Source: a virus. Taken from it: a stretch of DNA of 51,663 nucleotides. Positions 21,752 through 51,663 of the stretch are shown one piece after another (within the stretch, counting starts at the first letter, position 1; each line of letters begins with the position of its first letter). A program made the translations under genes and the position numbers. The notes below the pieces were generated by a model. It ran no database searches and was not told the origin of the DNA. It saw nothing but the letters and a program-made list of their open reading frames with translations. Where the stretch lies: IMG/VR virus record IMGVR_UViG_3300045988_097328. One strand, 5' to 3'.

Positions 21752-21780
21752 TTGACAAAACAGGTTGACGATGGTATAAT
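21752..21780 (+). promoter_or_regulatory. perfect sigma-70 promoter TTGACA-N17-TATAAT
   Basis: TTGACA 21752-21757, TATAAT 21775-21780; palindrome CAATCGttCGATTG at the predicted start site. Confidence 0.75.
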
Positions 21781-23088: not shown

Positions 23089-23174
23089 AATTCTTACCTC
23101 TTTCTGTCGGGTGCTTTTATTTTGTACCGCCCCTTGACATAATTTATTATAGCACAAGTTGCACAACTTGTCAA
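23089..23174 (-). promoter_or_regulatory. promoter-leader cassette A: TTGACA-N17-TATAAT with spacer palindrome and conserved 5' leader
   Basis: -35 at 23169-23174, -10 at 23146-23151 (minus strand); ACAAGTTG-CA-CAACTTGT at 23154-23171; leader GTCAAGGGGCGGTACAAAATAAAAGCACCCGACAGAAAGAGGTAA. Confidence 0.8.
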
Positions 23175-23181
23175 CACTTTT

Positions 23182-23355
23182 TCAAGATTTTTCGCAAGTT
23201 TTTTGCGTTCTTTCCGAAAGCCACTGCGATAGGGCAAGGCGGACAACCGCCGAATCACTTAGCCCAATTCGCTGCCCAATCGCCTTAATTTGCTCATTCT
23301 GCTCGTGCGTCACAATGACGTTCTTAACAATCCGATTTCCATCTTTTTTTAACAT
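23182..23355 (-). CDS. ribbon-helix-helix (CopG/Arc-like) DNA-binding protein, last gene of cassette B operon
   Basis: 57 aa from ATG 23355 (GGAGG 6 nt upstream); VIVTHEQNEQIKAIGQRIGLSDSAVVRLAL. Confidence 0.6.
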   Translation of the reverse strand: MLKKDGNRIVKNVIVTHEQNEQIKAIGQRIGLSDSAVVRLALSQWLSERTQKTCEKS

Positions 23356-23368
23356 TTTCATCCTCCTA

Positions 23369-23449
23369 TCAGTTAAGCAGATTATCAATTGCCATTGCGC
23401 GCGCTACGATTGGCGCAATGTCAACGCTGACGCGCCCTGCGTTCTTCAT
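23369..23449 (-). CDS. micro-ORF (26 aa) with a strong RBS
   Basis: AAAGGAG 7 nt before ATG 23449; MKNAGRVSVDIAPIVARAMAIDNLLN; stop 23369-23371. Confidence 0.3.
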   Translation of the reverse strand: MKNAGRVSVDIAPIVARAMAIDNLLN

Positions 23450-23481
23450 TGTGCTGCTCCTTTCATCGCCTAAAATGATTT

Positions 23482-23532
23482 CGCCGCGTTGCGGCGGCGG
23501 ATTTTTGTGCGGTCCGCCGCCGCAACGCGGCG
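23482..23532 (-). terminator. 20-bp perfect hairpin immediately after the stop of gene 23535-24173
   Basis: CGCCGCGTTGCGGCGGCGGA / TCCGCCGCCGCAACGCGGCG with an 11-nt loop; only a moderate U tract on the minus strand. Confidence 0.5.
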
Positions 23533-23534
23533 GG

Positions 23535-24173
23535 TCAGGCTTCCTTGCGCTGGTAGAGCTTAAAACTACGTCCCCGCGCCTTGATTTCGTAGCATTCCAG
23601 CTCCGTCGCTGGAATCAGGGACGAAAGCGTAACCTTATTCAGGCGGCTGACGCTTTGAACCTCATCAAGGCGGCACGTTTTCATGCGCGGCTGGTTGCGC
23701 AGCCAGCGAATGACGCCAACTTTTGCGCACGCGGGAAGTTCACGGCGGCGACTGACCTGCCGCATCTGCTGCCGCTTTTGCCGCTTCTCTTGTGCAGCCT
23801 TTGCCGTCGCTTCGTCGCCGAACACCCGTGCCCCGTACAGGGAATGCTTGTCAACAGGATAGAAGCAGGTTTCCTTGATGGTTTCAAATGTGCAGTTGTT
23901 GATGATTTCGCGCTCCACGGAGTCTTTTGCGCGCGGGAGTGAGCGCTGACCTACGCTCAGAACATAGAACTCATAGCGCTCACGTTTCGTGGTGTAAATC
24001 CGCACGCGCAAAAGGTCATTTTCTTTGCGCAAATCAACGCAGGCAATTTCTCCGGAGTATTGCCTGCCGCAGAGGTCGCTCCGGCTTCCAGTGTTGATTT
24101 GGTAGCCATGCGAAAGGAACTCCGCGACCGTCTCCGTAAAGGCGCGGTCGATGTCCTGCTGCTTGTAAATCAT
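23535..24173 (-). CDS. hypothetical protein (212 aa)
   Basis: GGAGG 6 nt before ATG 24173 (internal to track ORF 23535-24311). Confidence 0.6.
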   Translation of the reverse strand: MIYKQQDIDRAFTETVAEFLSHGYQINTGSRSDLCGRQYSGEIACVDLRKENDLLRVRIYTTKRERYEFYVLSVGQRSLPRAKDSVEREIINNCTFETIKETCFYPVDKHSLYGARVFGDEATAKAAQEKRQKRQQMRQVSRRRELPACAKVGVIRWLRNQPRMKTCRLDEVQSVSRLNKVTLSSLIPATELECYEIKARGRSFKLYQRKEA

Positions 24174-24712: not shown

Positions 24713-24797
24713 GGTCATTACCTCTTTCCGTCCGGGGCTCTGTTTTGTACCGCCCCTTGACACTATGTATTATATCACAGGTTGCACAACTTGTCAA
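24713..24797 (-). promoter_or_regulatory. promoter-leader cassette B: TTGACA-N17-TATAAT with spacer palindrome and conserved leader
   Basis: -35 at 24792-24797, -10 at 24769-24774 (minus strand); ACAGGTTG-CA-CAACTTGT at 24777-24794. Confidence 0.8.
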
Positions 24798-28281: not shown

Positions 28282-29352
28282 TCAATTTTGACTACCATTT
28301 TGACTACTTGCCCTCCTCGCAAGCACATTTTCCACTTTCTTAACAGCGCTTTCCTCCTTCTTTGCTGTGAGGTGTGCGTAAATCCTCATTATCATTTCCT
28401 CGTTTGCGTGCCCCATCCATTTTACAGCAGTTTTAATGTCAACGTCCGCATCATATAGCATTGTTGCGAACGTATGTCTACAATCGTGCTGACGTATCGC
28501 AACTTTCTTCCGCGCAACCGATGACAAAAAGCTCAAATATCTGCGCCATTCCACATCCACGTCGTTTATTGACATTTTTTTGCCATCTTTTGGCGTAAAA
28601 ATATTACCGTGCTTGCCTGTTAGTGCCTTCCTCAGTGGCAGGAACAGGGGAACATCACGGATTCCTGCTTTTGTTTTTGGCTGGACGATAACACACGAGG
28701 AATGTTCGGCGCGCAGAGAGTGCCGAACGTGAATTACGCCATTTTCAAAATCAACGTCCTTGTCAATGTCGAGTGCAAGCGCTTCACCACGCCGCAACCC
28801 TGCATAGAGCATCACCATAGCAAACAGTCCCATCGGATTTTCTTTGTATGTATCTTCGATTATCTGCACTTCCCAATCTTCAAGGTTGCGGTGCGTTCCA
28901 ACTTCGCCTTTCGCCGGCTTGATGTTTTCGCATGGATTTTTTGTTACAATTCCATCACCTAACGCGGCGCGGAAAACCGCTCGTACCGTCATTGCTACTT
29001 TTTTTCGTGTCGCATCCCCACGATTAGCAAAAGCGTTATATAGCCGTTGTATGTCCGACGGCGTAATTAGTCGCATCTCAACTTTTGGCAAGATTGACGC
29101 TATCTTGTTAAGCCTTGCCACATAGTCATCATACACTTTCGCCGTCACCTCGCTCTTGTACGTCGGCAGCCACTCCGCCGCGTACTCCGCGAACGTGTAC
29201 TTTTCCCGTGGTTTCCTGCCGTATTTTTCCTGCTTCTTGTACTCTTCGCGGGCTGCAAGGGCTTCGGACTGCGTTCGCCCGTAGAAGGAAAACCCCTTAT
29301 ATTTACAAACGTAACGCCCATCTGGGCGCTTTTTTAGTGTCTGGCGTGGCAA
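28282..29352 (-). CDS. int: tyrosine recombinase / phage integrase
   Basis: LRRGEALAL (R), HDCRHTF (HxxR), GHANEEMIMRIYAHL (H..Y); start chosen at TTG 29352 (AAAGGAG 8 nt upstream); in-frame ATGs at 29403 and 29460 are alternatives. Confidence 0.85.
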   Translation of the reverse strand: MPRQTLKKRPDGRYVCKYKGFSFYGRTQSEALAAREEYKKQEKYGRKPREKYTFAEYAAEWLPTYKSEVTAKVYDDYVARLNKIASILPKVEMRLITPSDIQRLYNAFANRGDATRKKVAMTVRAVFRAALGDGIVTKNPCENIKPAKGEVGTHRNLEDWEVQIIEDTYKENPMGLFAMVMLYAGLRRGEALALDIDKDVDFENGVIHVRHSLRAEHSSCVIVQPKTKAGIRDVPLFLPLRKALTGKHGNIFTPKDGKKMSINDVDVEWRRYLSFLSSVARKKVAIRQHDCRHTFATMLYDADVDIKTAVKWMGHANEEMIMRIYAHLTAKKEESAVKKVENVLARRASSQNGSQN

Positions 29353-29528
29353 GTATATCACTCCTTTTCTCTCATTGTGCCGCAAAACGCAGCAAAGTGC
29401 CATCGTAAATTGTGAACAAATTGAAAACATTTCGCAAACGCACGGGAAATTTTTAGTCATATTCCGCGGCGCGTCAGCATATGGTATTGCGGTTGACGGT
29501 AAAAAAATACGCGACTGGAGAGGAAAAT

Positions 29529-34929: not shown

Positions 34930-34958
34930 TTGACATTCACGCAAAGTGAATGTATAAT
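34930..34958 (+). promoter_or_regulatory. perfect sigma-70 promoter with a spacer palindrome (early rightward promoter)
   Basis: TTGACA 34930-34935, N17, TATAAT 34953-34958; CATTCAC-gcaaa-GTGAATG at 34934-34952. Confidence 0.8.
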
Positions 34959-43716: not shown

Positions 43717-44061
43717 ATGCACAAAATCATCATTTTGGAAAGCGAACAGTTTGGAAACATCCGAGTGTTCGTCGAAGAGGGAGGACCAAGACTGTGGTTT
43801 GTGACGATTGACATTTGTCGAGCGCTGGACATCGACCCAACAGCGACGCGCCGCCTTGATAAGGACGAAAGAGTTACAGTGCGTTTAACGCATACCAGCT
43901 CGGACGGAACGTTCCAAGAACGCAAATTGGCTTGCGTCAGCGAAAGCGGTCTGTATGCTCTCGTTCTCGGTAGCAGCAAGCCCGAAGCAAAAACCTTTAA
44001 GAGCTGGATTACGCAAGAGGTCTCTGCTATATCAAAAAGTTTAGGATGGGAGCGGGCGTAA
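43717..44061 (+). CDS. Bro-N domain protein (antirepressor-like)
   Basis: FGNIRVFVEEGGPRLWFVTIDICRALDI...SESGLYALVLGSSKPEAKTFKSWI. Confidence 0.7.
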   Translation: MHKIIILESEQFGNIRVFVEEGGPRLWFVTIDICRALDIDPTATRRLDKDERVTVRLTHTSSDGTFQERKLACVSESGLYALVLGSSKPEAKTFKSWITQEVSAISKSLGWERA

Positions 44062-44255
44062 TGCGAGTAAAACCAAAACCTTGCCCGAATTGCGGGGGCA
44101 AGTACGTAGAAATGTGTTGTAAATTCTTCGACGGTAACGGTTTTGAGGTAAGATGCTTGGACTGTGGCTATATCGGTGAGTTCGGGAAAACAAGAGCCGC
44201 AGCCGTGAGAGCGTGGAATAACGACGAAAGGAGAAAGAAGAATGCAGGATTATAA
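44061..44255 (+). CDS. lar: Lar-family restriction-alleviation-like zinc-ribbon protein
   Basis: 64 aa; KPKPCPNCGG...RCLDCGY...AAAVRAWNN. Confidence 0.55.
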   Translation: MRVKPKPCPNCGGKYVEMCCKFFDGNGFEVRCLDCGYIGEFGKTRAAAVRAWNNDERRKKNAGL

Positions 44256-44421
44256 ACTGAAACCGTGCCCGTTCTGCGGGGGACGAAAAATCGAACTGGT
44301 AGAACCTGAGTATTTTTTCGGCAGTTGGTTTTGCGAATGCGCTACGTGTAGACAAGCCATTGCAGCAGGAAAAACGGCAGAGGAAGAACAAAAAAAGAAT
44401 GGAGGGGACGGAAATGAGTGA
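44242..44421 (+). CDS. second Lar-like zinc-ribbon protein (59 aa)
   Basis: below the track cutoff; GGAG RBS; KLKPCPFCGGRKIE...CECATC. Confidence 0.5.
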   Translation: MQDYKLKPCPFCGGRKIELVEPEYFFGSWFCECATCRQAIAAGKTAEEEQKKNGGDGNE

Positions 44422-44860: not shown

Positions 44861-45128
44861 CAAAAACCGGGTACTGACACTTGCGGAATTGGCAATCAGC
44901 GCAGAAACGCTCGTATGGATTGAAGATAACAACGGGGACGACGAGCCGTGCGTCCGTGCGCGAATGTTAACGTACTGGGAACCTAAAAGCCATCGCATAT
45001 ATTTCGACGGCGGACGCACATGGTACGCCGATTATACATACGGCGAGACGTGGCGCTGCTGGTTGAGGAATCCGACGGAGCAGCAGATGAGGGACACGCC
45101 GTGGGAGGAAAGCAAAAATGAAGTATGA
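44850..45128 (+). CDS. WRCW-domain protein (paralogue 4)
   Basis: GGGAGGA RBS; NRVLTLAELA...TWRCWLRNPTEQQMRDTPWEE. Confidence 0.6.
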   Translation: MKDNKNRVLTLAELAISAETLVWIEDNNGDDEPCVRARMLTYWEPKSHRIYFDGGRTWYADYTYGETWRCWLRNPTEQQMRDTPWEESKNEV

Positions 45129-45897
45129 GTTCACTGGCGAAGTGAAATACATCGGCCGTAAGATATTGCATCGAATCCGCGCAGTGCGAGACATCCCGGA
45201 ATACGAGATTAAAAGCGGCGACATGGGAGGATGGCTCGAAACAGAGAAAAATCTTTCACATAACGGCTCAGCGTGGGTGACGGATTCTGCGGTGGTGATG
45301 GACGCGGCGTTCGTGACGGGAGATGCGCGTGTGATGGATTCTGCGTTGGTGATGGGAAATGCGCGTGTGATGGGCGCGGCGCGGGTGATGGACGAGGCGT
45401 TCGTGACGGGAGATGCGCGTGTGACGGATTCTGCGCGGGTGACGGGTTTGTCGCTGGTGGCTGGAAATGCGTTGGTGATGGAAAATGCGCGTGTGATGGA
45501 TTCTGCGCGGGTGACGGGTTTGCCGCTGGTGGCTGGAAATGCGTTGGTGATGGAAAATGCGCGTGTAATGGGCGTGGCGCGGGTGACGGGCGCAGCGTGC
45601 GTAAGGGGCGCAGCGTGCGTAAGGGGCGCAGCGTGGGTGACGGGAAATGCGCATATAATGAACTCGGCTGATTACATCACCATCAATACAATCAAAAACT
45701 GTGACGATACAACCACCTTTTATCGCGGCGCAGATGGGGGAATATATGTCGCCTGCGGACGCTTCAGCGGCTCAATTGACGACTTCGCCGCAAAAGTCAA
45801 GCAAGTCCATGCCGGGACAAAGCACGAAAGGACGTACCTGTTGGCAATCGAACTGGCAAAGGCGCAGATTGCGACGGAGGAGGAAAATGATGGCTGA
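45118..45897 (+). CDS. beta-helix-like repeat protein (hexapeptide/bactofilin-like A-R-V-x-G/D periodicity)
   Basis: 259 aa; GDARVMDSALVMGNARVMGAARVMDEAFVTGDARV... Confidence 0.6.
   Translation: MKYEFTGEVKYIGRKILHRIRAVRDIPEYEIKSGDMGGWLETEKNLSHNGSAWVTDSAVVMDAAFVTGDARVMDSALVMGNARVMGAARVMDEAFVTGDARVTDSARVTGLSLVAGNALVMENARVMDSARVTGLPLVAGNALVMENARVMGVARVTGAACVRGAACVRGAAWVTGNAHIMNSADYITINTIKNCDDTTTFYRGADGGIYVACGRFSGSIDDFAAKVKQVHAGTKHERTYLLAIELAKAQIATEEENDG
45415..45558 (+). repeat. two tandem 72-nt (24-codon) units inside the repeat-protein gene
   Basis: 45415-45486 versus 45487-45558 differ at about 3 positions; additional 18-nt repeats at 45589-45640. Confidence 0.85.
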
Positions 45898-47610: not shown

Positions 47611-48006
47611 ATGGTTGACTTAAAGCGGATGCGGTATCTCATCAGGCGGTATCCTATGGCTTGCTTGCGAGCAGAACAGGCGCGAATCCGGGCGCAGAAG
47701 CTGACGCGGACAATCAGCGACGCGCCGCGCGGGGGCGGAAGTATGAACAGCACGGAGGAAGGGCTGCTGTATCGCATCGAGGCACTGGAACGCAAGAAAG
47801 CAATCTGGGACGAGTTGTGCAGGATGCGCGAAGAGCTTGCGCCGCTGGTGGATGCGCTGGAAAGTCCGCTGGAAGTGCAGTGCATGAGAATGCGGTATCT
47901 GGAGGGAAGGAGCGTCCGGGAAATCAGCTACAATCTGGCGTATTCCGAGCAGCATGTTTTTCGCGTGATTGGTAACGCGGAGCGGAAAATCCAGAGCGCG
48001 GAATAA
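47611..48006 (+). CDS. sigma-70 region-4-like late transcription regulator (ArpU/RinA/DUF1492-like)
   Basis: GGGAGGGG RBS; ...VQCMRMRYLEGRSVREISYNLAYSEQHVFRVIGNAERKI. Confidence 0.5.
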   Translation: MVDLKRMRYLIRRYPMACLRAEQARIRAQKLTRTISDAPRGGGSMNSTEEGLLYRIEALERKKAIWDELCRMREELAPLVDALESPLEVQCMRMRYLEGRSVREISYNLAYSEQHVFRVIGNAERKIQSAE

Positions 48007-48011
48007 GGTGG

Positions 48012-48040
48012 TCGCGCATCGAAAGGTGCGCGATTTTCTT
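48012..48040 (+). terminator. rho-independent terminator ending the early/replication operon
   Basis: TCGCGCA-tcgaaagg-TGCGCGA then TTTTCTT. Confidence 0.8.
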
Positions 48041-48073
48041 TGCAAAAAATCTCAAAAAAATGTGATTTACCCC

Positions 48074-48160
48074 TTGACATATACGACAGTATATGTTATA
48101 ATAATTAGTGTCAAGGGGGCGGTACAAAATAAAGCACCCAGACAGAAAGAGGTAACGATT
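48074..48160 (+). promoter_or_regulatory. promoter-leader cassette C: TTGACA-N17-TATAAT with spacer palindrome and conserved leader
   Basis: TTGACA 48074-48079, TATAAT 48097-48102; ACATATAC-gaca-GTATATGT at 48077-48096; leader GTCAAGGGGGCGGTACAAAATAAAGCACCCAGACAGAAAGAGGTAA. Confidence 0.8.
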
Positions 48161-48547
48161 ATGGGCTTTTTGAATAATATGTTTGGCGACTTGGGCATCC
48201 ATCGCATTTCTAATAACTACTTCTCGATGAGCCATATAAACGAGGACGGGACGAAAATCATTGTCCGTGTCGATAGGGGACAGGTGTTCAAGACAAAGTA
48301 CGGTTACGGATTGATTCTCGACCAAAATCATGTTCAGTTTTTGAAGTCATGGGCGGTCAACGATAACTGGTACGGAATGTATATCATGCTGGATAAGCAG
48401 TATTTTACCCCGAAAGAATGGGGTGAGTTCGAGGACTATCCGGTAGAAAAAGAAAATCTTGACTTTGAAACATGGGTAAAAACTGCAAAAGAACAGGAGA
48501 ATATGGCAAAGAAAGACCGCATAAATTTTCAAGTTTACTGGCGTTAA
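48161..48547 (+). CDS. hypothetical protein (128 aa), first gene of cassette C
   Basis: start set by the conserved leader. Confidence 0.6.
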   Translation: MGFLNNMFGDLGIHRISNNYFSMSHINEDGTKIIVRVDRGQVFKTKYGYGLILDQNHVQFLKSWAVNDNWYGMYIMLDKQYFTPKEWGEFEDYPVEKENLDFETWVKTAKEQENMAKKDRINFQVYWR

Positions 48548-48574
48548 GTAAAAGAAATGGGAGGAGTAAAGCAT

Positions 48575-49399
48575 ATGATTGATACCCAAAAGGCGCGAAA
48601 AGCACTGACGGAAAATGAAACAACCGTCATAAATTACCTAAACAAGCACGGCATTGATGGCGAATTGACCGTGCAGACCTGCACACGGACGAAGTTCACC
48701 ATTCGGCGCAGCGACGGCGAAGAAATCACGTTCAACCTTCCTGCGCGTCTCTATCGCGCTGGTTATCCAAACATCAATTCTTATCTCGCGACAGTCCGAG
48801 ACCTCATCCAGCCGCCGAAGAGGCGCGAGCCAAACGAAGTTTCCGAGGAAGAAATCGCGCGATACATGCCGGGAAAATGGTCGCCGGACTACATTGCCGC
48901 TATTATCGCCTATGTTAAGCGAGTAAAAAAAGTCGGTATGATACTGTACATCGTGTCGGAGTACGACATCGAGGCGCAGTCATGTTTTCGCGGTTCTCAT
49001 GAAGACTTACTTCGCCTCGACAAATTCGACGGCTACGACCGTGCAGAAGAAAGTGGGCATCCTCTGCTGGTTACGGAGGACAAGGAAAAGGCAGAAAAAC
49101 TTTTTGCCGGAAAAACATCAGGCTTCTACGGGCACGGAGGAATCGCATATAAGCATGGATTCTTTTACGGCGAATATCAAGTCAATGCGCCGGAAGATGA
49201 AGATGACACCATGCCGGAAATCGAATGTGTTGGTTCGTCGGACGCGCCAGTTGAAATCAACGTGTACCGCCGCGACAATGACGCGGATTGGGATGAAGAG
49301 GGCGAAGTCGTTGCAACCTTCTCCACCTACGCGGAAGCCTTCGCAGAACGCGATTTGTCCGCAACCTGTGACAGGGACAGCGAATACTACGTCCAATAA
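48575..49399 (+). CDS. hypothetical acidic protein (274 aa)
   Basis: GGGAGGAG 8 nt before ATG 48575. Confidence 0.6.
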   Translation: MIDTQKARKALTENETTVINYLNKHGIDGELTVQTCTRTKFTIRRSDGEEITFNLPARLYRAGYPNINSYLATVRDLIQPPKRREPNEVSEEEIARYMPGKWSPDYIAAIIAYVKRVKKVGMILYIVSEYDIEAQSCFRGSHEDLLRLDKFDGYDRAEESGHPLLVTEDKEKAEKLFAGKTSGFYGHGGIAYKHGFFYGEYQVNAPEDEDDTMPEIECVGSSDAPVEINVYRRDNDADWDEEGEVVATFSTYAEAFAERDLSATCDRDSEYYVQ

Positions 49400-49413
49400 G
49401 AAGAGGATACAAA

Positions 49414-49632
49414 ATGCGTAAAGAGTATTACCAAGGCGACGTGTCAGTCCGAGCGATGCGGAAGTATCGCGAAAAAGAAGGAATCAAGACGGTGCGCTTC
49501 GACGTTCGCGCTGGGAGCAAAGAGGCGCTGGAAGAAGAAGCAAAGCGCCGTGGTCTTTCGGTGGCGCAGCTAATCGTTGATTCCGTAAACGCCTATGTCG
49601 GGCGTGAGATAATTGCAAACAAAAAACAATAA
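49414..49632 (+). CDS. ribbon-helix-helix-like DNA-binding protein, last gene of cassette C
   Basis: 72 aa; VRFDVRAGSKEALEEEAKRRGLSVAQLIVDSVNAYV. Confidence 0.5.
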   Translation: MRKEYYQGDVSVRAMRKYREKEGIKTVRFDVRAGSKEALEEEAKRRGLSVAQLIVDSVNAYVGREIIANKKQ

Positions 49633-49639
49633 TAGAATG

Positions 49640-49667
49640 GGCGCATCCAATGGGGGTGCGCCTTTTT
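49640..49667 (+). terminator. rho-independent terminator
   Basis: GGCGCA-11 nt-TGCGCC then TTTTT. Confidence 0.75.
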
Positions 49668-49726
49668 CGTTGCGAAAAAAGTTTGCAAAAATCGCAGAAA
49701 AAATGTGATTTACCCCTTGACATATA

Positions 49727-49803
49727 CGGCAGTATATGCTATAATAATAGTGTCAGGAGGGCGGTACAAAAAATAAAGCCCCCGACAGAAAGAGGTAATG
49801 ATT
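49727..49803 (+). promoter_or_regulatory. promoter-leader cassette D: TTGACA-N17-TATAAT with spacer palindrome and conserved leader
   Basis: TTGACA 49727-49732, TATAAT 49750-49755; ACATATAC-ggca-GTATATGC; leader GTCAGGAGGGCGGTACAAAAAATAAAGCCCCCGACAGAAAGAGGTAA. Confidence 0.8.
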
Positions 49804-50007
49804 ATGAAGACCATCAAGCTGAGCACCAAGGCGCTGGAAACCCTCAACCGCATCGGTGACTATCCCACCCGAAATTGGATTTACGTCCGTGATTATTATA
49901 CTGGCAAGTACAAGCGCATCTCGAAAGCAGTGTTTGATGACCCGGCGACGGTTTGCTTTAAGATGCAGACCGAGTGGGAATACATCAAAGTCAAAGCGAT
50001 AAAGTAA
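49804..50007 (+). CDS. hypothetical protein (67 aa), cassette D
   Basis: start set by the conserved leader. Confidence 0.55.
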   Translation: MKTIKLSTKALETLNRIGDYPTRNWIYVRDYYTGKYKRISKAVFDDPATVCFKMQTEWEYIKVKAIK

Positions 50008-50042
50008 GACTTGTTCACACAATCCCGCCTAATCGCAACAAA

Positions 50043-50079
50043 ATGCCGCCTGAGAGCCGCCGGAGCAATCAGGCGGCAT
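50043..50079 (+). other. 11-bp stem-loop after cassette D (no U tract)
   Basis: ATGCCGCCTGA-15 nt-TCAGGCGGCAT; a third copy of AGGCGGCAT at 50120-50128. Confidence 0.4.
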
Positions 50080-50374
50080 AATTATGAGCAAAAACAAGCA
50101 AGCCGTTAGAACGCGAAATAGGCGGCATTTCTGGCAATGACAAAGAAACAAAAACATATAGAAATAAAAAAATGAGAGTTATGAGAGTAATTTCCGTGCT
50201 ATAATGTAAAATGTAAAAGCAGCAAAAAAGACGTGAGCAGTGATGCAAGCGCCTTTTTTGTTGGAAGAGGCGACTATGGAAGTGCCGCTCTTACCTCTTC
50301 GGCGGCGGGAGTTATGCGCGAGTGCGCTTTGTTGCGTTGGTGGGGACGCGACGGAAGAAGAGGAGGGAAAACCA

Positions 50375-51663
50375 TTGCTTGAATGGAACGGCATCAAAAT
50401 CGTCGAAACGGATTGTATGCTGCCGGTTGACCGCGTAAAACCCTACGCGAGAAACGCAAAGCGGCATCCGCAGGAGCAAATCGACGAAATCAAGGCAAGC
50501 ATCAAGCGGTTCGGCATGGACGACCCCATCGGCATCTGGGGCAAGGAAAACCTGATTGTCGAGGGTCACGGGCGGCTGGAAGCGTGCAAGCAGCTCGGCA
50601 TCCCGACAGTGCCGTGCATCAGGCTCGACCACCTTACGAAGGAAGAGCGCAAGGCGTACACTCTGGCGCACAACAAAACCAACATGGACAGCGGCTGGGA
50701 CTTTACGGCGCTTGACCAAGAGCTGGCGGAAATCGTTAATATTGACATGAGCGAATTCGGCTTCGGAGCCTCCCTTCCTGAAGAAGAAATCTGGCAAGCA
50801 AACGAAAACAGCATATCATTGACTGACAAATATACATTCGCGCCATTTTCTGTCCTTGATGGCAGGAGTGGAGAATGGCAGAAACGGAAAAATCAATGGC
50901 ATTCCGTTATTGGCGACAGCAGGGAAGGACGAGCTGATTCGCTAATTGGCAGTCTCGGTTCTCTTGCAAAGGCGCAAGGGCATAAATACAGCGGGACAAG
51001 TGAGTTTGACCCGGTTCTCTGCGAGATTTTGGTAAAATGGTTCTGCCCCCCCAATGGGAAAATCGTTGACCCGTTTGCTGGCGGAAACGTTCGCGGCGTA
51101 ATTTCCGCAATCCTCGGCAACGAGTATCACGGAGTAGATATTCGCCCGGAGCAGATTGCAGAAAATGAATCGTCTCTACAAAAAATCCGTGCAGATTACG
51201 CACAAGCGCCGAAGTGGCATTGCGGCGACAGCGCGAATATTGACGCGATGCTCGAAAAAGAAGCACCGTTTGATTTTTTGTTGATGTGTCCGCCGTATGG
51301 AGACTTAGAAAAGTACAGCGACAATCCAAAAGACCTATCAACGATGAAGTACGAGGATTTCATCGCTGCGTATAGAGACATAATCGAAAAGACGGCAGCG
51401 CTTCTTTCGGAAAACGCGTTTTGCGCCGTAGTTGTATCCGACATACGCGACAGAAAGGGAATGTATCGCGGATTCACTTCTGAAACAATCAAGGCATTTG
51501 CAGACTGCAACGTAAAACTATATAACGATATGGTAAAACTAGACACGACTTGCGGGGCTGCTGTTCGCGTCGAAAAACAATTCCGCGATATGCGCAAAGT
51601 CGTGCGTGTCCATCAAAACGTTCTTGTTTTCGTAAAGGGCGACCCTCGTAAAATCAAAAAAGG
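50375..51663 (+). CDS. ParB-like nuclease domain fused to a SAM-dependent DNA methyltransferase (continues at 1-180; 449 aa from TTG 50375)
   Basis: ORF absent from the track because it runs off the window; GAGGAGGG 7 nt before TTG 50375 (in-frame ATG at 50276 is an alternative); ParB box KPYARNAKRHP...LIVEGHGRLEA; motif I VDPFAGGNVRG; motif IV LLMCPPYGD. Confidence 0.8.
   Translation, partial: MLEWNGIKIVETDCMLPVDRVKPYARNAKRHPQEQIDEIKASIKRFGMDDPIGIWGKENLIVEGHGRLEACKQLGIPTVPCIRLDHLTKEERKAYTLAHNKTNMDSGWDFTALDQELAEIVNIDMSEFGFGASLPEEEIWQANENSISLTDKYTFAPFSVLDGRSGEWQKRKNQWHSVIGDSREGRADSLIGSLGSLAKAQGHKYSGTSEFDPVLCEILVKWFCPPNGKIVDPFAGGNVRGVISAILGNEYHGVDIRPEQIAENESSLQKIRADYAQAPKWHCGDSANIDAMLEKEAPFDFLLMCPPYGDLEKYSDNPKDLSTMKYEDFIAAYRDIIEKTAALLSENAFCAVVVSDIRDRKGMYRGFTSETIKAFADCNVKLYNDMVKLDTTCGAAVRVEKQFRDMRKVVRVHQNVLVFVKGDPRKIKK
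51545..51663. repeat. second copy of the terminal direct repeat
   Basis: identical to 1-119. Confidence 0.95.

Follow-up and report, generated by a model that had tools for sequence, protein, structure and literature searches.

Matched exchange of operator type and predicted DNA-reading strand in two candidate ribbon-helix-helix regulons of a gut-type phage

The viral record IMGVR_UViG_3300045988_097328 is a stretch of 51,663 nucleotides (nt), referred to here as the window, which carries two adjacent rightward gene cassettes, C and D, at positions 48,074 to 50,007. We propose, with a probability of roughly 0.75, that the two cassettes constitute one autorepressed negative-feedback regulon, in which C3, a small ribbon-helix-helix (RHH)-like protein encoded by the last gene of cassette C, would repress both its own promoter, P_C, and the promoter of cassette D, P_D. 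Two leftward cassettes elsewhere in the window, A and B, have the same anatomy with a different palindrome and a different RHH-like protein, B4. The proposal draws on three kinds of observation, namely the anatomy of the promoters, the covariation of the operator type with the predicted DNA-reading β-strand of the RHH-like protein across related phages, and the turnover of the cargo genes that lie between the two.

Cassette C starts at P_C (48074–48102, + strand), a promoter with 12 of 12 consensus positions (−35 hexamer TTGACA, 17-nt spacer, TG-extended −10 hexamer TATAAT). Its spacer is filled by the palindrome ACATATAC-GACA-GTATATGT at 48077–48096, here called the type I operator, which extends into the ACA of the −35 box at one end and into the TG of the extended −10 at the other and whose type covaries with the RHH β-strand across relatives. 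P_D (49717–49745, +) repeats this design, with a perfect consensus TTGACA-N17-TATAAT, a TG-extended −10, and the type I operator ACATATAC-GGCA-GTATATGC at 49720–49739. The first palindrome thus lies, and fills the spacer, exactly where the original prediction had it, while the second, which had been placed at 49730–49749, needed to be moved, as that coordinate was 10 nt too high. The joint promoter and palindrome pattern (ACATATAC-N4-GTATATG) has two matches in the window vs. 0.00 expected from 100 shuffles, and a search of the window for the type I palindrome with up to three mismatches returned no good further copy. More broadly, the window holds 10 perfect or near-perfect TTGACA-N17-TATAAT promoters vs. 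0.13 expected, five of them with a palindrome in the spacer.

The promoters are embedded in a scaffold of ~130 nt shared by C, D, and the minus-strand cassettes A and B, which consists of an A-rich upstream stretch, the promoter, and a leader of ~58 nt; the leader had been predicted to be common to all four cassettes, and it is. The A-rich part, recognized from direct-repeat families (D5 and D6 in the case of cassette C) and from an alignment of the four scaffolds, spans 48039–48073 (+; TTTGCAAAAAATCTCAAAAAAATGTGATTTACCCC) ahead of P_C and 49682–49716 (+) ahead of P_D. An intrinsic-terminator-like hairpin followed by a T run (48010–48035, +) ends the upstream regulatory operon and insulates cassette C, and its sequence also precedes the first cassette in most relatives. 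A second such hairpin (49639–49663), with a T run that extends the element to 49668 (+), closes cassette C and is kept in relatives. The predicted open reading frames (ORFs) for proteins of 128, 274 (acidic), and 72 residues in cassette C and of 67 residues in cassette D are present, as is the cassette C terminator.

In the leftward pair, P_A (23146–23174, −) carries the type II operator ACAAGTTGTGCAACTTGT, and P_B (24769–24797, −) carries a type II operator as well; the palindrome of both, ACAAGTTG-YR-CAACTTGT, differs from that of C and D, on the same scaffold. Neither of the two palindrome types occurs in the window outside its own pair of promoters. As the repressor of P_A and P_B, we propose B4, a 57-residue RHH-like protein encoded at 23182–23355 (−).

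Relatives were collected from IMG/VR with two DNA patterns, the C/D promoter–operator pattern, found in 65 stretches, and the leader pattern, found in 78, which together gave 104 loci, mostly on contigs of 25–55 kb. These loci contain 117 consensus promoters with the leader behind them, and every one has a palindrome of one of four types: type I (ACATATAC-N4-GTATATG), type II (ACAAGTTGYRCAACTTGT), type III (ACATATTGCCGGGAATATG), or type IV (ACAAGGTATATAYCTTGT). All four run from the ACA of the −35 box to the TG of the extended −10. The outer sequence CATAT/ATATG is common to types I and III, and ACAAG/CTTGT to types II and IV, with only the inner ~8 bp differing within each pair. In the sets retrieved by the leader, a search blind to the operator, the variation falls in the center, and the arms show almost none. 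A fifth palindrome, ACATTGTG-GG-CACAATG, occurs in locus L012 ahead of a further B4-like protein, F72, with the strand KVDMKIILD; in the same locus, a type I promoter drives one cargo gene without a regulator of its own. The RHH gene lies inside the operon and ends 86–94 nt upstream of the next promoter of the same type.

The strand of the RHH-like protein tracks the operator type. Homologues of C3 fall into two classes, in which the N-terminal 14 residues and helix B are kept and the predicted strand differs: the strand IKTVRFDVRA goes with type I promoters in 31 contigs, and MQKITIEVQA with type III in five. Similarly, B4 homologues with the strand IVKNVIVT go with type II in 13 contigs, and those with KCIIVT or KCIILT with type IV in six. 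Counted per contig where both flanking promoters are known, the pairing is concordant in 55 cases and discordant in three. The comparison of sequences across these contigs therefore supports the claim, made from the window by itself, that there is a pair of parallel regulons, in each of which two promoters are combined with a single palindrome type and a dedicated RHH repressor. The A/B and C/D loci assort independently in type (I + II in 11 contigs, I + IV in five, and II + III in one).

Between one type I and one type III phage, the divergence is confined to a few patches. Loci L039 (type I) and L082 (type III) have the same three cargo genes, 93–100% identical, and drop to 57–73% identity in three patches only, one at each of the two promoter/operator regions and one in the central RHH codons. 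The proteins of types I and III differ at eight of nine strand positions vs. 14 of 63 elsewhere (Fisher p = 2e-4). The hydrophobic strand positions are kept (V/F/V vs. I/I/V), and the intervening ones have all changed (T/R/D/R vs. K/T/E/Q); on the register of CopG, the intervening side chains would face the bases. In the B4 lineage, the two type IV forms are only ~60% identical to one another (22 differences in 53 aligned positions), yet both have the N12C change relative to type II. One C3 homologue, P0017, which was not placed on any contig, joins a type I strand to a type III C-terminal half and looks like a natural hybrid.

Could the match between RHH gene and operator be simple linkage, with the palindromes bound by another factor, such as the double helix-turn-helix protein A3, the main repressor, or a host protein, or by nothing at all? 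The RHH gene sits ~90 nt from the downstream promoter and is tightly linked to it, the contigs are closely related, and three of them are discordant, all of which would fit such a reading. The upstream promoter matches too, across 0.3–1.3 kb of cargo shuffled among at least 15 architectures: because the cargo differs, the promoter and the RHH gene are separated by 312 to 1339 nt, and the types still match. Identical cargo is flanked by matched type I or by matched type III pairs, the differences are concentrated in the DNA-reading strand, and A3 homologues accompany types II, IV, and others without tracking the type. As the types match across variable cargo and also around identical cargo, the sequence comparison indicates that the RHH–operator match is more than simple linkage, and we consider recognition by some other factor, or by none, quite improbable.

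The assignment of C3 to the RHH family draws on several modest matches. This 72-residue basic protein (49414–49632, +) is predicted to form a β-strand at residues 25–32 (KTVRFDVR) followed by helices at 36–46 and 50–63, and its sequence has an R-R-G-L-S turn together with alternating hydrophobic residues V27, F29, and V31. Against Pfam RHH_1, it scores 16.9 bits (cutoff 20.5, E = 0.006), i.e., below threshold, with weaker matches to NikA-like and RHH_5; its type III variant aligned to RHH_1 positions 2–39 with E = 0.014. PHROG matches include a transcriptional regulator (2.6e-4) and an Arc-like repressor (0.009), and the best match of the C3 profile in the PDB is the RHH antitoxin VapB26 (E = 0.024), with MazE7 also among the best. 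In a model of the monomer, helices 36–46 and 50–71 have a predicted local distance difference test (pLDDT) score of 70–82, and the helix pair superposes at 0.7–1.0 Å on VapB, AvtR, and CopG, with Foldseek E-values above 3. The strand region falls below 50, a value that may be expected for the modeled monomer of an obligate dimer. Eighteen close relatives of C3, none of them named, were found among 5.8 billion clusters. Taken together, the RHH identity originally predicted for C3 stands as consistent with all matches, which point in one direction; their scores remain below curated thresholds.

B4 itself has weak PHROG repressor matches only, and the best PDB matches of its profile are the RHH proteins ORF56 (E = 0.053) and CopG. 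Its relative F72 exceeds the Pfam RHH_3 cutoff (21.9 bits vs. 21.6). Comparison of the C3 and B4 profiles detected no homology (hhalign probability 0.6%), so the two are handled as separate lineages.

The PDB matches of the C3 profile raise the question of whether cassette C is a type II toxin–antitoxin or abortive-infection module with C3 as its autoregulating antitoxin: VapB26 and MazE7 are RHH antitoxins, and RHH antitoxins are described in the literature as autoregulating through promoter palindromes. Against this stands the lack of a fixed partner, as the partner genes differ among at least 15 architectures and the same RHH protein lies behind more than 10 unrelated cargo sets. C3 also ends nine residues after helix B, which leaves almost no toxin-binding tail, the same operator would control a separate cassette as well, and no cargo protein matched a toxin or defense family in Pfam, PHROGs, or PADLOC. 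We regard this as the least probable of the explanations considered, and as very improbable.

In the regulon that we propose, P_C and P_D would act as consensus promoters of the host sigma-A type that need no phage activator and, for that reason, should fire once the DNA is in the cell. Transcription of cassette C would yield the variable cargo proteins C1 and C2 and then, from the last gene, C3. Accumulating C3 would bind the 20-bp spacer palindrome as a dimer or a dimer of dimers and block RNA polymerase at its own P_C and, in trans, at P_D, so that the output would be a burst of cargo expression followed by a low, autoregulated level. A consensus promoter with an optimal 17-nt spacer and a palindrome on both hexamer edges fits repression by occlusion, not activation. 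B4 would do likewise at P_B and P_A with its different palindrome, and, as B4 is unrelated to C3, the two regulons should be orthogonal. Over evolutionary time, the operator core and the RHH β-strand would be replaced together as a matched pair within the conserved promoter–leader scaffold, and cargo is swapped freely. We infer the binding, repression, timing, and stoichiometry in this scheme, as well as any role of the cargo in entry or anti-defense.

The timing of expression is where a second reading has to be weighed. The wiring of repressor and operator would be the same, and the cassettes would be morons expressed from the prophage at a steady low level set by the RHH protein, for lysogenic conversion or superinfection exclusion, with no burst at entry. 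The gene content marks the phage as temperate: a tyrosine integrase is encoded at 28282–29460 (−), and a leftward repressor-like gene adjoins a rightward early promoter at 34930–34958, which defines a divergent region at ~34900. The cassette promoters have no copy of the early-promoter palindrome, and the main repressor therefore probably does not silence them; each cassette has a promoter of its own and is set off by a terminator; and a related prophage lies in the 170-kb contig ERZ27242284:k141_4633. Conversely, the only annotated cargo in relatives has an ArdC-N-like anti-restriction domain, which in plasmids serves an entry function, and the characterized analogues, Reg576 and the anti-CRISPR-associated (Aca) proteins, drive transient expression upon entry. 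Both readings may hold together. Since the phage is temperate, the same circuit could equally yield steady low expression in lysogens. Prophage expression without an entry burst is a possibility to be kept in mind, at odds that we place well below even.

Several points weigh against the proposed regulon as a whole. All RHH matches of C3 itself lie below curated thresholds, and its monomer model is weak overall (pLDDT 55) and poor at the strand, with a fold search that gave no significant match. Since the phage encodes an integrase, the anatomy fits steady prophage expression just as well as it fits an entry burst. Part of the type I set came from a search in which the operator arms were fixed, so it was given no weight on arm conservation. 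The counts do not represent independent events, because most of the contigs share one IMG/VR sample identifier and are close relatives. Finally, type III proteins lie beside type I promoters in L003 and L042, and the converse, a type I protein downstream of a type III promoter, is seen in L059. The three discordant contigs, 058537, 075554, and 087969, may be either genuine recombinants, whose promoters would be unrepressed, or chimeras assembled across the repeated scaffold; two of the three hold two copies of the type III protein beside type I promoters.

Apart from these relatives, the DNA patterns alone fetched an unrelated group of low-GC (guanine plus cytosine) phages (L002, L005, L009, L013, L014, L016, L032, L044, L045, L061, and L063) with TTGACATATACGTACGTATATGCTATAAT, a perfect 18-bp palindrome with the same half-sites. 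Behind it lie one or two tiny hydrophobic ORFs and a 63-residue RHH-like protein, whose best Pfam match is ParG (E = 0.014) and whose predicted strand reads TKYVRFPLDL; BLASTP found no similarity between this protein and C3. Convergent recognition by C3 (K-T-V-R-F) and the low-GC protein (K-Y-V-R-F) was considered and dropped: in the register of CopG, their common V and F point into the protein core, which leaves K and R as the only residues that could be informative. The group is kept only as an apparent independent replicate of the operon architecture, an RHH-like gene behind a promoter.

The leader shared by the four cassettes, at 48103–48160 (+) in cassette C and 49746–49803 (+) in cassette D, is predicted to form a 5′ hairpin (UGUC..GGGGC-loop-GC(A)CCC..GACA) followed directly by the Shine–Dalgarno sequence AAAGAGG. 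The hairpin, ending at the Shine–Dalgarno sequence, is predicted in four of the four leader copies of the window with z-scores of −1.1 to −2.7, the cassette D copy having −13.8 kcal/mol and z −2.7. Among 74 distinct leaders, there were no compensatory changes and several stem-disrupting ones, and the loop GGUACAAAA is better conserved than the stem. A search of Rfam gave nothing at the gathering score, with one chance-level transfer-messenger RNA fragment over the terminator. Since compensatory changes are absent, and covariation thus lends no support, the hairpin is not claimed as a structure.

The leader could nonetheless be the main control point, with a common RNA-binding factor, or the RHH proteins themselves, acting on the 5′ untranslated region as Aca2 and Aca1 do. 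Its conservation in all four operator types and both RHH lineages, the hairpin predicted in every window copy, and the RNA-level control reported for Aca proteins speak for this. Set against them are the stem-disrupting changes, the absence of an Rfam match, and the fact that the leader does not vary with the RHH or operator type and hence cannot carry or explain type specificity. It may simply stabilize the mRNA or aid translation, or it may be a site for a common factor. Overall, control centered on the leader strikes us as unlikely, and repression at the spacer palindromes remains the preferred explanation.

The cargo itself is hypervariable. C1 (48161–48547, +; 128 residues) was found behind type I promoters in only four other loci. 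C2 (48575–49399, +; 274 residues) has two domains, the C-terminal one acidic; its isoelectric point is 4.7 and its net charge of −19 falls entirely within residues 108–274. An exhaustive HMMER search found 10 relatives of C2 among 1.84 billion representatives, and its model (pLDDT 84) matched one uncharacterized phage protein in a structure search and no solved structure in the PDB. D1 (49804–50007, +; 67 residues, basic) has four relatives, all hypothetical. None of C1, C2, and D1 matched an entry in Pfam, PHROGs, or PADLOC, and PADLOC returned nothing for any cassette protein. Across relatives, these cassettes hold ~25 cargo families, nearly all unannotated.

The exception is a 102-residue ArdC-N-like protein, encoded as the second gene of cassette D behind the D1 homologue in most relatives, which scores 26.8 bits (cutoff 22.6) against PF08401, the Pfam entry for the N-terminal domain of the anti-restriction factor ArdC, and matches the PHROG anti-restriction family phrog_7245; the assignment is a domain match, not a validated inhibitor. 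In the window, an alignment to L053 identifies the last ~30 nt of this gene as a remnant at 50008–50040 (+), the rest having been deleted. The anti-defense character first suggested for the cargo thus has a hint in the relatives' cassette D, from a gene that the window has lost.

Cassettes C and D sit between the regulatory operon and the methyltransferase/packaging genes. They qualify as phage morons in having a promoter and a terminator of their own, in their position between functional modules, and in their variable presence, as the turnover of cargo and the deletion remnants among related phages illustrate. A candidate remnant is also seen in the leftward cassettes, where a 26-codon ORF (23369–23449, −) matches the first ~20 and the last six residues of a 437-residue cargo protein of relatives; as it begins and ends like that cargo gene, it looks like its in-frame deletion remnant. 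Just upstream of this ORF lie B2 and then a hairpin with a 19-bp stem (~23480–23538), which may reduce read-through into the B4 repressor gene.

The logic of an autorepressed RHH regulon with several promoters is already established. Reg576 of the Bacillus pumilus conjugative plasmid p576 is an RHH repressor of four strong promoters, among them the one for its own gene and the ardC promoter (Val-Calvo et al. 2018, PMC6294495), and its regulon is expressed transiently after entry, a behavior known as ‘zygotic induction’ (PMC6294495; pLS20-family survey PMC8708921). The likeness extends to an RHH autorepressor, proposed in the present case, acting on several strong sigma-A promoters with a conserved upstream sequence, to a Firmicute host, and to the variability of the cargo, as only the regulator and the ArdC gene are conserved in p576. 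In anatomy and covariation, the window and its relatives match this plan, each operator type being found at a pair of promoters, one of which has the RHH-like gene downstream. Promoters of the Reg576 regulon are flanked by operators made of direct repeats (TTATCCC twice), unlike the single palindrome inside the spacer described here. Reg576 is also plasmid-borne, whereas C3 and B4 belong to a phage, and it was described with one specificity, in contrast to at least five interchangeable ones and two orthogonal regulons per genome. Reg576 was absent from the PDB matches of the C3 and B4 profiles at E ≤ 10.

Similarly, Aca14 (WP_005725436.1) is an RHH anti-CRISPR-associated regulator that represses its own and a neighboring candidate anti-defense operon (bioRxiv 10.64898/2026.07.27.740549). 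In both systems, a small RHH or, here, RHH-like protein is encoded inside the operon that it controls, or is proposed to control, and an inverted repeat lies in the promoter of that operon. The Aca14 repeat overlaps the −10, and its setting is Proteobacteria, beside known anti-CRISPR (acr) genes, whereas the present cassettes lack any known acr gene; for Aca14, an exchange of operator types has not been described. Since no validated anti-defense gene is attached and no homology was found, C3 is filed neither as an Aca protein nor as a Reg576 homologue; Aca14 was compared by description only.

In the immI region of phage P22, the RHH repressor Arc is made from Pant and shuts Pant off through a two-subsite operator within the promoter, giving a brief early burst. 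Arc is encoded by the first gene, ahead of one fixed cargo gene (ant), and the region has the divergent promoters Pant and Pmnt and a second RHH protein, Mnt. P22 also differs in having no shared leader or multi-cassette scaffold, and its proteins have no sequence relationship to C3. The size and cooperativity of the Arc operator are mentioned in the Reg576 study (PMC6294495). A further parallel comes from the PeSL (promoter-stem-loop) cassettes of T4-type phages, in which a repeated promoter and hairpin surround hypervariable ORFan genes (Arbiol et al. 2010, PMC2839356; PMC4122927). These cassettes, like morons, have conserved regulatory repeats flanking ORFans, likely as recombination sites that shuffle cargo; they have no operator and no dedicated repressor, in contrast to the repressor-specific palindrome on each scaffold seen here. 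The differences from known systems are therefore a single palindrome internal to the spacer, the use of one scaffold by two orthogonal regulons of the same genome, and the paired exchange, between near-identical phages, of an operator core with its reading strand, for which at least five versions exist.

Why should so many versions coexist? A tentative and speculative answer, which we would not bet on at even odds, is that the operator/RHH pairs act as a kind of immunity type for accessory genes, and that a balanced polymorphism within the conserved promoter–leader scaffold maintains at least five orthogonal pairs, with two independent ones per genome. An infecting relative with type I cassettes would find them silenced in a host whose prophage makes the type I RHH protein, and would thereby lose its entry functions; this cross-silencing would select for the joint replacement of the operator core and the RHH β-strand. 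If so, the phage group would amount to a natural library of orthogonal repressor–promoter pairs with a readable RHH recognition code (e.g., T26/R28/D30/R32 vs. K/T/E/Q, or N, C, or K at B4 position 12), and, if cross-repression drives the switching of specificity, heteroimmunity would extend from the lysis–lysogeny switch to accessory regulons. Matched core/β-strand pairs in a constant background resemble a natural mutagenesis experiment on DNA reading by RHH proteins and may provide compact orthogonal parts. The scaffold also offers a handle for gene discovery in uncultured gut-type Bacillota phages, as the genes downstream of it are candidate early, entry, or anti-defense genes.

The early rightward promoter (34930–34958, +) has the same design as the cassette promoters, with a consensus sequence and a CATTCAC-N5-GTGAATG palindrome in its spacer, and its upstream sequence GTTTACCCC is common with cassettes C and D. 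One relative has CATCAAC-N5-GTTGATG at the corresponding promoter, and this pair of sequences suggests heteroimmune variants of the main switch as well.

The window represents a phage genome of 51,544 bp that is circular or circularly permuted, as bases 1–119 are identical to 51545–51663, and the methyltransferase ORF that starts at 50276 crosses this junction. We propose a gut-type phage of a Bacillota-type host. The closest cultured phages, temperate siphophages of Enterococcus and Lactococcus, share with it only a large terminase at 48% identity. A DNA similarity search with 47900–50400 against 50,697 deposited phage genomes gave no match, and the leader pattern had none in 185,579 species-representative genomes, where relatives of the window integrase are at most 31% identical and uninformative on the host; that exact integrase is not on record. 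Two other origins of the palindromes were considered and dropped, namely integron-like attC sites, which have no adjacent recombinase here, and partition (ParG/omega) sites, which have no adjacent ParA; in both cases, the palindromes lie exactly in promoter spacers.

A few other features of the genome were noted. A perfect consensus promoter without a palindrome (21752–21780, +) is convergent with the 3′ end of the leftward A cassette and may give an antisense transcript or transcriptional interference; relatives have a similar promoter-like site at the matching position (e.g., L012 at 7881). At 44046–44421, two short ORFs have the zinc-ribbon motifs KPCPNCGG and KPCPFCGG, which we take to be typical of Lar-type restriction-alleviation proteins, and a gene in the corresponding region of L105 matches Pfam Lar_restr_allev. 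The ORF at 45118–45897 contains at least 14 tandem 18-nt units (45252–45665) and encodes a hexapeptide-repeat protein of 259 residues with repeats of the ARVMD/ARVTG type. Downstream of cassette D, the non-coding region 50020–50380 is 92–95% identical in at least 30 relatives, despite different methyltransferase genes downstream. It includes a strong hairpin without a U run (50043–50079, z −3.9), an extended −10 promoter-like site (TGCTATAAT, 50197–50205), and a terminator-like A-run/U-run hairpin (50220–50263) directly before the ATG at 50276, and may encode a small RNA or an attenuator for the methyltransferase.

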